This document shows, piece after piece, positions 33,090 through 33,593 of a stretch of 64,000 nucleotides of DNA (position 1 is the first letter of the stretch; every line of letters starts with the position of its first letter). A model generated the notes under the pieces. The model worked only from the letters and a program-made list of their open reading frames with translations. It ran no database searches and had not been told where the DNA came from. The DNA is from a virus (taxonomy: Duplodnaviria > Caudoviricetes). The translations under genes and the position numbers were made by a program. The DNA is taken from positions 1 to 64,000 of the IMG/VR virus record IMGVR_UViG_3300012031_000005; one strand, 5' to 3'.

Positions 33090-33185
33090 TTAAAACTAAA
33101 GGTAGCGGCCCAGTTCCAACGGTAGTGAGCACCGACACACTATGGGCTTATGTAACTATAACGGTCCCAAGTGCTGTGTTCTTTT
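33090..33185 (-). ncRNA. putative small RNA with 23S rRNA H69-H70 complementarity
   Basis: 33152-33171 matches 23S 1910-1929 at 19/20; 33099-33107 matches 1927-1935; internal stems; TAAATA at 33189-33194. Confidence 0.5.
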
Positions 33186-33191
33186 AACTAT

Positions 33192-33593
33192 TTACTCAGT
33201 GTTACTCTTTTGAATCTTGTTATTGATTTCGTCCATAGTCTTTTCTGACTGGATATAGTATTGTCTGTACGCTTTGATAATGCTTTGCTGCTGTTGTATG
33301 AACGCACGTATATCACCAAGGTTCAGACTAATTCTTTCATAGCCGTTGCTGGTCAGACCTAGCAATACTACTGATTCTCCTGACAGTCTTAATTCTTCAA
33401 ATATTTCTTGATAGTTCTCAGGAGTAATAATATACCATTCGAGACTGCGCATACGTATCTCATCAGCATCTGGCAACACTAATTCTGGTTTAGCAATAGG
33501 AGTAAACGAAGCGTCAACCTTTTTAGTAAACAAGCTACACCCGCTTAGCAGGGTTGCGACCAGGACGAGCACTAGCACATTAGTTGCTTTCAT
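33192..33593 (-). CDS. o-spanin (Rz1-like lipoprotein)
   Basis: Lipobox LLSGC; overlaps the i-spanin. Confidence 0.75.
   Translation of the reverse strand: MKATNVLVLVLVATLLSGCSLFTKKVDASFTPIAKPELVLPDADEIRMRSLEWYIITPENYQEIFEELRLSGESVVLLGLTSNGYERISLNLGDIRAFIQQQQSIIKAYRQYYIQSEKTMDEINNKIQKSNTE

Follow-up and report, generated by a model that had tools for sequence, protein, structure and literature searches.

Small antisense RNAs of the kissing-loop type, such as CopA/CopT, RNA I/RNA II and OxyS-fhlA, show the segment complementary to their target in hairpin loops. Here we describe an RNA element of similar layout in a stretch of 64,000 nucleotides (nt) of phage DNA, i.e., positions 1 to 64,000 of the IMG/VR record IMGVR_UViG_3300012031_000005 (Caudoviricetes), which is referred to below as "the window". 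The element lies between an o-spanin gene and a holin-like gene, and two segments of it, both predicted to be exposed, together complement, by Watson-Crick or wobble pairs, one contiguous stretch of 23S ribosomal RNA (rRNA) in helices 69 and 70 (H69 and H70). It is a member of a widespread, single-copy, virus-only phage RNA family, and comparison of the members supports the complementarity to H69/H70 as the selected feature. We give roughly an even chance to the further reading that the element acts as an antisense RNA pairing with H69/H70 of the host 23S rRNA.

H69 forms the central intersubunit bridge of the ribosome, acts in termination and recycling, carries three pseudouridines and, since it is barely variable, has been a target for drugs and antisense agents. 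Like CopA/CopT, RNA I/RNA II and OxyS, the phage element ends in a predicted terminator and displays its complement in hairpin loops, and OxyS likewise uses two loops against two sites of one target. The targets of CopA-type RNAs, however, are messenger RNAs (mRNAs) or primer RNAs of their own replicon or of a host regulon, whereas the complement of the phage element is a universally conserved part of the 23S core and recurs in unrelated phages. The Shine-Dalgarno sequence and the 3' cap-independent enhancers of plant viruses (complementary to 18S rRNA) are also short conserved rRNA complements in a non-coding part of a message, and the position of the latter in the 3' untranslated region (3'-UTR) resembles that of the phage element. 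These elements offer 4-9 nt to small-subunit rRNA and recruit ribosomes, while the phage element offers 25-31 nt to H69/H70 and would unfold a functional centre. The site of the homing endonuclease I-CeuI, at the 23S 1923-1931 intron hotspot, comprises the same 26-28 letters of 23S rDNA; the native site is contiguous double-stranded DNA, whereas in most family members these letters are split, permuted and placed in covarying RNA helices, and the window has T1926C. Guides of the small nucleolar RNA type (C/D and H/ACA) also pair with rRNA near modified nucleotides, but the phage element is without their box motifs, and the use of guide RNAs is not known from bacteria. In Helicobacter pylori, natural antisense pairing with large-subunit rRNA has been described for an RNA that binds the 23S-5S precursor, and the hybrid is cut by RNase III; this RNA differs in being cis-encoded opposite the leader, host-owned and not viral, and in leaving the mature 23S core untouched (PMC6582327). 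A peptide nucleic acid (PNA) aimed at H69 of Escherichia coli 23S rRNA blocked translation and growth (Kulik et al. 2017, as summarised in PMC12828698); it shares the target helix with the phage element, while being man-made, short and unstructured, and the passage on it in PMC12828698 cites no natural counterpart.

Matches were assessed against E. coli rrlH 23S, whose numbering is used throughout. The original prediction had pointed to positions 33152-33171 (plus strand) as equal to 23S 1910-1929 in 19 of 20 letters, with a mismatch that is a G-U wobble for the antisense strand. This was confirmed; the match contains an exact 16-mer (33152-33167), and its sole difference is a C for T at 1926, which places a G opposite U1926 in minus-strand RNA. 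The nine letters at 33099-33107 match 23S 1927-1935 without exception (9/9) and, as had been noted, lie upstream of the main match, so that the order is permuted. The string CGGTAGTGA at 33120-33128, previously taken for a degenerate copy, is indeed there, but in relatives it makes up the loop and 3' strand of hairpin P3', which covaries, and is not conserved as a 23S-like copy. By simple arithmetic, about 2e-4 16-mers common to a 150-nt spacer and 23S (both strands) would be expected by chance, and the 64-kb window contains one instance of the degenerate 19-mer at 3 mismatches or fewer, where 0.11 would be expected. Exact matches of at least 16 nt to E. coli 16S, 23S or 5S are confined, within the window, to the element, and no other anti-rRNA elements were found there. 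Elsewhere in the window, positions 58531-58545 match E. coli 23S 842-856 (sense) exactly over 15 nt, which is about chance level for 64 kb.

The sequence flanking the 23S matches is unlike 23S. A large-subunit (LSU) rRNA model did not match the 92.6-kb record from which the window is taken, and a BLAST search of the 150-nt spacer against E. coli genomes (E <= 10) returned nothing, as the 23S match is too short to be picked up in a database of this kind. The spacer is spanned, at about 95% identity, by contigs from three other studies, so that the suspicion of a chimeric rDNA fragment could be discarded. The element also proved to be present in relatives: three further viral contig lineages (L005, L006 and L010) carry it directly upstream of a holin homologue (97%, 87% and 53% identical to that of the window, respectively). 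In L010, other open reading frames (ORFs) lie between the element and the spanins, and the element is more conserved than the adjacent protein. Among 80 loci gathered via holin homology these three lineages alone have the element, all others reaching at most 15/20 to the 20-mer. The 23S-like element is neither a chance match nor an assembly artefact.

All family members carry two motifs, i.e., an A-box (core UUAGGACCGUUAU, the complement of 23S 1916-1928, often extended to ..AGUUA and then reaching 1910) and a B-box (UUCGCUAC followed by U or C, the complement of 23S 1929-1937). In most members the two abut on the target (1913-1928 and 1929-1937) without gap or overlap. The A-box target (about 1911/1913-1928) comprises the 3' half of the H69 loop, its 3' stem strand and the linker, and the B-box target (about 1929-1937) is the 5' strand of H70. 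Pattern scans of IMG/VR yielded 13 viral stretches in quite different contexts for a 19-mer, at least 118 stretches for a 14-nt core (71 of 123 instances among the matches listed having an additional TTR prefix) and 82 viral stretches for a bipartite pattern of A-box and B-box. A pattern that leaves 1911-1919 free, fixing TTAGGACC and the B-box only, added 72 further stretches (53 unique), and 51 of these 53 show by inspection the same build with the B-box in a hairpin loop. Extra window-type variants came from a metagenome scan, a long-gap scan added one locus (a duplicate of L159), and a scan that had nothing but the structural part of the window type as its anchor returned just the two closest relatives. 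The family so collected comprises 99 unique element sequences in about 107 different flanking contexts. The 93 unique 14-nt-core contexts among the matches listed served as an internal control: TCGCTA occurred 31-75 nt downstream in 31 of 48 contexts with the TTR prefix and in 6 of 45 without it, where chance would give about 2% each (arithmetic), and these 6 contexts reduce to 4 different sequences, apparently family members whose prefix deviates.

Each of five large phage records (197-322 kb, two judged complete) has one copy of the element and no match to the reversed pattern, and there is one copy in the 92.6-kb record of the window. When the bipartite pattern was run against the genomes of 185,579 bacterial and archaeal species, 79 matches were obtained, 75 inside 23S genes and 4 in coding sequence, and no phage-type element was found among them. 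Ten of the 75 23S-gene matches have an insertion next to the site; these insertions, near position 1931, occur in CPR (candidate phyla radiation) bacteria (L209, L214, L240, L250, L274), Acidobacteriota (L221, L225, L235, L254) and Acidimicrobiales (L272), and in these genes the likeness to E. coli stops right after ..ACCTTAGG (antisense view), the point at which A-box and B-box abut. The cultured phages with an element are T5-like Vibrio phages (qdvp001, PWH3a-P1 and four more, among them R16F, 10AMN and P018-4), which have the element, of the L092 type only, in an unannotated gap. Two compact-type elements (see below) found no carrier among cultured phages, and another cultured-phage search with a compact-type element matched solely 23S rDNA records filed as phage. 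Many 2-7 kb "phage" records in the phage collection (Klebsiella, Listeria, Staphylococcus, Salmonella, Escherichia) are, in fact, plain host 23S rDNA. In the qdvp001 record, a stretch of about 1 kb without annotated genes (56160-57208; L318 2452-3502) starts with the family element; ARAGORN found no transfer RNA (tRNA) in it, and this gap may hold further non-coding RNA. One metagenome contig of 1563 bp (L335) carries the contiguous 23S-like site (..CGCTACCTTAGGACCGTTATAGT..) as inverted copies at both ends, which could be a vector or adaptor artefact with an I-CeuI site or a small mobile element.

Rfam 15 at the gathering score gave 0 matches in the whole window (no group I intron or other ribozyme either). 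A permissive scan of 32950-33300 gave just SNORA16 (E 0.3; 32964-33069), below threshold and almost wholly beside the element, and 15 loci with family members gave tRNAs only. The original statement that no such system has been described is upheld by these Rfam searches and by the full-text literature, in which we found no description of such an RNA, most subscription journals being outside coverage.

Three builds can be distinguished, and only the two boxes are common to all of them. The compact build consists of a variable hairpin or ACGG stem, the A-box, a P2 hairpin that uses the 3' part of the A-box, and a terminator hairpin with the B-box in its loop; the window build is described below. 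In the contiguous build, B and A are joined as one antisense stretch of 28-31 nt that is followed by a terminator, with complementarity of 27/28 in L085, L093 and L097 and about 31 nt in L123, L124, L153, L191, L197 and L201. The first three of these adjoin tRNA genes and have a TATAAT-like box. Contiguous elements were also seen to follow an ORF of about 57 aa with two CxxC pairs and the look of a zinc ribbon (L085 5023-5196, L097 7154-7390, L124 11507-11683, L153 57-233), the pair of ORF and element being located near tRNA genes.

The core of the B-box is unpaired in the closed loop of the terminator hairpin in 96 of the 99 unique members, as compared to 43 of 99 in a flank-shuffled control. 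Where the complement has changed, the result is a G.U or U.G wobble (at 1910, 1926, 1929 or 1930), or else the change lies opposite 1915, which is the one free position of the complement and is m3-pseudouridine in mature E. coli 23S rRNA. For example, 7 of the 99 unique elements have a G facing U1926, the L124 group has a U facing G1930 and L090 a U facing G1910, and the base after CGCUAC is C or U, either of which pairs with G1929, in 97 of 99. The target itself is invariant, with CTTAGG present in 75 of 75 23S contexts from many phyla. Complementarity also extends beyond what the patterns imposed, as 38 of 49 elements from the TTAGGACC-pattern scan pair over at least 13 consecutive positions, of which 9 were forced, and different lineages extend it either towards 1907 or towards 1941, always in the 23S register. 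Thus, extended complementarity, its retention in diverged homologues and pairing-preserving changes, as expected of a putative antisense RNA, are all found at the sequence level.

The window member is predicted to be a structured minus-strand RNA of about 117 nt, close to the RNA of about 100 nt originally proposed (Table 1). Its covariance model (R1) was built from 8 consistent window-type rows, and the remaining rows were aligned by R1, an earlier alignment (A3) having misregistered helices P2', P4 and P5 between subgroups. R1 finds one match in the 92.6-kb record, the window element. Diverged members outside its training set were recovered as well (L090/L010, E 2.6e-12; L322/L133, about 1e-8; L159, 8e-7), with weaker matches in L184, L092, L350, L127, L336 and L327 (E 4e-4 to 6e-3). 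In the model-fitted alignment A5 (26 distinct rows), 88.9% of the cells are paired as compared to 65.4% in shuffles (0 of 500 reach the observed value) and 34-52% in slid controls, and two-sided changes occur at 15 of 17 pairs. In P4 these include GCCCAC/GUGGGC, GCCCAU/AUGGGC and CGCCAC/GUGGC.

Helix P2' encloses the anti-H69 stretch in a loop of about 19 nt; its outer helix has two-sided changes at 3 of 3 pairs, and for its inner helix the support consists of per-sequence duplex predictions (-9 to -12 kcal/mol) and inspection of variants with differing letters (UUAGG/CCUAG, CCUGG/CCAGG, CUUGG/CCAAG). The single mismatch at 1926 is explained by this helix, since a G facing U1926 is accompanied by a C in the partner strand of P2' (UUGGG/CCCA vs. 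UUAGG/CCUAG). Two of the three stems in the original prediction have a place in this structure: CGGU/ACCG is P3', with covariation, and UGGG/CCCA is the inner P2' helix, by duplexes and inspection, while GCCCA/UGGGC is, on inspection, not conserved in relatives. P4 together with the tail UAUUAUUUU, i.e., a stable stem and a U-run, has the form of an intrinsic terminator. Strain variants comprise 5 substitutions within the RNA and leave 33152-33171 invariant; 33119 A>T and 33090 T>A form a compensatory pair in P5 (U-A to A-U), 33116 C>T turns G.U into A-U, another turns A-U into G.U and another lies in a bulge. The predicted duplex of the A-box with E. coli 23S (1909-1929) reaches -34.2 kcal/mol as compared to -20.4 +/- 2.3 in 40 shuffles (minimum -28.1). 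A 42-aa ORF (33010-33138) was ruled out as a protein-coding micro-ORF, as its frame is not kept in L010, where indels of 7, 1 and 4 nt break it.

Table 1. Predicted RNA element, promoter-like boxes and neighbouring genes in the window
Feature	Position	Strand	Basis or remark
Whole RNA element, about 117 nt, window type	33071-33187	minus	Covariance model R1 match 33071-33188, 123.5 bits, E 7.9e-23 (window itself among the 8 training rows of R1)
A-box, RNA CUUGGGACCGUUAUAGUUAC	33152-33171	minus	Complement of 23S 1910-1929: 19 Watson-Crick pairs and G.U at 1926
B-box, RNA CGCUACCUU	33099-33107	minus	Complement of 23S 1927-1935; CCGCUA in apical loop of P5
Helix P2'	33135-33177	minus	Outer ACA/UGU, 33175-33177 with 33135-33137; inner CUUGGG/CCCAUAG, 33166-33171 with 33140-33146
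Hairpin P3' (CGGUG/UACCG, loop CUCAC)	33120-33134	minus	84.7% of cells paired vs. 71.9% in shuffles; two-sided changes at 4/4 pairs
Helix P4	33080-33129	minus	CUCAC 33125-33129 with GUGAG 33080-33084; pseudoknot with P3' loop, encloses P5, terminator stem; 99% of cells paired, two-sided changes at 5/5 pairs
Hairpin P5, displays B-box	33090-33119	minus	Outer helix 90% paired; two-sided changes at 6/6 pairs
U-rich tail UAUUAUUUU after P4, likely 3' end	33071-33079	minus	Read from sequence
CATAAATA box	33051-33058	minus	TATAAATA-like, 8-14 nt before the holin ribosome binding site, downstream of the element's terminator
TAAATA overlapping o-spanin stop codon	33189-33194	minus	Present in window, L005, L006; absent in L010, L086
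Endolysin gene	34055-34960	minus	phrog_181, E 8e-71
i-spanin gene	33580-34053	minus	Rz-like spanin
o-spanin gene, directly upstream of element	33192-33614	minus	phrog_812 Rz-like spanin, E 1.2e-9
Spacer between o-spanin and holin-like genes, 150 nt	33042-33191	minus	Contains RNA element
Holin-like gene, 101 aa, directly downstream of element	32736-33041	minus	Sole PHROG match phrog_27150 (unknown function), E 4e-7

The strand of the RNA is settled by the orientation of flanking genes and by U-runs. The element and the longest flanking frame share a strand in 92 of 96 flanks on the upstream side and 92 of 103 on the downstream side, and a run of at least 4 T follows within 45 nt of the B hairpin in 102 of 107 elements. 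A decoy of H69 read from the plus strand, which had been considered before, does not fit this orientation. In 94 of 106 cases an ORF of 60 aa or more on the same strand precedes the element within 200 nt, and in 91 of these 94 the A-box begins at most 43 nt past the stop codon. Among the neighbours sampled, the upstream gene encoded the large subunit of ribonucleotide reductase (RNR) in 14 of 65 cases (e.g., L102, L135, L345, L346, L393) and a spanin in 5 of 65, and the downstream gene encoded the terminase large subunit (TerL) in 8 of 52 (e.g., L342, L346, L348, L393); an HNH or homing endonuclease gene neighbours the element in a few loci. The order RNR large subunit, element, terminase large subunit was seen to recur (e.g., L346, L393). 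Placement at module borders fits several readings, i.e., host shut-off with recycling of rRNA, a ribosome tether in the 3'-UTR, or a sensor of read-through.

In the reading that we favour, phages of many lineages would keep one RNA gene dedicated to pairing with H69/H70, and would thereby either put newly made 50S subunits out of action or destroy them, or else secure 50S subunits for phage messages; we hold the chances for and against this to be about balanced. Pairing is favoured because the boxes alone are common to the three builds and are in register with one contiguous target, and the target would have to be universal because the seed is kept letter for letter in phages of different hosts. 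We infer transcription, pairing in the cell, target state and consequence for the host as follows. Transcription of the minus strand would yield the RNA as the 3' end of the spanin transcript, and perhaps in addition from a start of its own, and a pseudoknotted intrinsic terminator would end it just ahead of the promoter-like box of the holin-like gene. Its target may be nascent or assembling 23S rRNA, or free 50S subunits with exposed H69; as H70 is paired in the mature 50S subunit, nascent or assembling 23S rRNA seems preferable, with free 50S subunits for the H69 part. Pairing would begin at the displayed loops and zip into a hybrid of 27-31 bp over 1907/1911-1937/1941, in the presence of which neither H69/H70 nor bridge B2a could form. 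This would withdraw newly made or free 50S subunits from service, and RNase III may gain access to the hybrid. The H69-directed PNA and the antisense RNA of H. pylori mentioned above speak for the feasibility of such a mechanism. In its split, permuted form the element would act as a clamp on the target at the junction, which is the known 23S intron-insertion site near 1931.

Several points weigh against this proposal. Given the high flank-shuffled control reported above, the count of B-boxes in loops is by itself weak. The exposed part of the A-box varies by subfamily (the 5' half in P2' of the window type, the 3' half in P2 of compact types), and the pairing seed is therefore not uniform; in one large subfamily, moreover, the complement to the H69 loop (1911-1915) is degraded. 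Invariance of the boxes is partly ascertainment, because most box positions were fixed by the search patterns, and the covariation counts come from a model-fitted alignment, a circumstance in favour of the structure. The minimum free energy (MFE) of the whole spacer is no better than that of shuffles (z -0.5 for the minus strand and +0.3 for the plus strand), and comparative structure was therefore used instead of energy. The H70 strand of the mature 50S subunit is base-paired and in part buried, so that B-box pairing needs nascent or unfolded 23S rRNA. Finally, most small RNAs are far less abundant than ribosomes, and ribosomes are needed by the phage as well.

Among the alternatives, a cis-acting 3'-UTR module, by which the element on the upstream mRNA would pair with the 50S subunit or ribosome at the 3' end and aid recycling or re-initiation, raise phage translation or protect the 3' end, as a bacterial counterpart of the 3' translation enhancers of plant viruses, seems unlikely to us. 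The close succession of stop codon and A-box (94/106 behind a same-strand ORF, 91/94 within 43 nt) and the RNR large subunit (14/65) and spanin (5/65) genes upstream are in its favour, and every upstream transcript would carry the element, since the latter always ends in a terminator. Short spacers are, however, usual in phage genomes, so that proximity to a stop codon is expected anyway, and a single copy in a genome of 200-320 kb could serve no more than one operon; the downstream gene sits behind the terminator, and L085, L093 and L097 (contiguous, near tRNA genes, with a TATAAT-like box) look like free-standing small RNAs. The narrower version in the original prediction, a tether that serves holin translation, is likewise unlikely, as a covarying terminator helix, a U-run and a separate TATAAATA-like box precede the holin start. 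The same terminator could belong to a sensor, resembling a T-box for rRNA, in which free 23S rRNA or 50S subunits would pair with A-box and B-box, open the terminator and allow read-through into the next (late) module. The location of the B-box inside the terminator loop (96/99) and the frequent position at module borders (RNR 14/65 upstream, TerL 8/52 downstream, and spanins and holin on either side in the window) would suit such a sensor, but a TATAAATA-like box of its own usually accompanies the next gene, there is no conserved helix that could act as an alternative antiterminator, in the contiguous type the complement lies outside the terminator, and co-transcriptional capture of a 23S segment would be kinetically demanding; we consider this sensor distinctly improbable.

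A structured RNA that acts via a protein or through its fold alone (e.g., as a processing or stability element), the likeness to 23S being an old relic of rDNA capture or mimicry without pairing, would account for the conserved pseudoknotted fold of the window type, for its conserved unpaired stretches unrelated to 23S (AAAGAACA, GUGUC, AAAG) and for the unremarkable MFE z-scores and duplex energy of the B-box alone. That the compact and contiguous types have only the two boxes in common with the window type, that the boxes abut exactly on the target (1913-1928 and 1929-1937), and that lineages extend the complement in different directions but always in the 23S register argue against it, and a relic would not retain wobble-only changes in unrelated phages; on balance it appears rather unlikely. 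Very little probability, in our view, attaches to an element that works at the DNA level, either as a target or decoy of an I-CeuI-type homing endonuclease or as a recombination site at the 23S 1923-1931 intron hotspot. Although the boxes cover the I-CeuI site and abut where 10 bacterial 23S genes carry an insertion, and an HNH or homing endonuclease gene adjoins in a few loci, a contiguous protein site is lost in the permuted order, RNA covariation is seen in the helices that surround the boxes, the element shows a strong strand bias with respect to genes and U-runs, and wobble-type changes make sense for RNA pairing only. A captured rDNA fragment or homing-endonuclease site as such was rejected, as the order is permuted, the flanks are unlike 23S and real 23S contexts differ. 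The scanning of many windows will yield some 16-mers, and the window has the unrelated 15-mer match at 58531; chance resemblance or an assembly chimera with rDNA is nevertheless next to negligible, given that the element is kept in independent assemblies and studies, in phage gene spacers and in about 100 relatives, with flanks unlike 23S.

The CATAAATA box ahead of the holin-like gene corresponds to the motif previously noted at 33051-33056; a TATAAATA-like box in the matching place is kept in most relatives (L090, L292, L320, L332, L333, L340, L133). Judged by the T4 late-promoter consensus, it looks like a late promoter of the T4 type. The TAAATA at 33189-33194, proposed as a late start for transcription of the element, is present, but as a start it is not conserved beyond the closest relatives L005 and L006, and it is a possible start site of the element in the lineage of the window only. 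A T7-type phage-polymerase promoter (the motif being slightly SP6-like) was dropped, as there is a single copy per genome, and a repeated promoter or operator motif was ruled out by the occurrence of 1 copy in the window, in the 92.6-kb record and in each of the five large phage records.

The 92.6-kb record has an estimated completeness of 26%, and the genes around the element are all on the minus strand. The 101-aa protein is called holin-like for its position and its hydrophobic stretches, and it matched no Pfam family. Directly downstream of the holin-like gene, 29610-32690 (minus strand) encodes a chaperone pair carried by a large phage, namely a double AAA+ protein of 748 aa that resembles ClpA/ClpB and a full DnaJ of 274 aa. 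BLAST of 32700-33700 against 50,697 phage records gave no match, and ARAGORN found 0 tRNA or tmRNA genes in the window.

If the antisense reading is true, the element would be the first natural viral antisense RNA directed at rRNA and would represent a new kind of host take-over, in which rRNA is possibly recycled into nucleotides. It would also define a new class of RNA-RNA interaction, that of a small RNA with the core of LSU rRNA, and could serve as a template for antisense antibacterials. Should the element recruit ribosomes instead of inhibiting them, pairing of a 3' element with 23S rRNA would still be without precedent in bacteria. The cultured Vibrio phages of the T5 kind provide a testable model, and pairing with H69/H70 would account for a conserved single-copy non-coding element in about 100 aquatic phage contexts, jumbo phages included.

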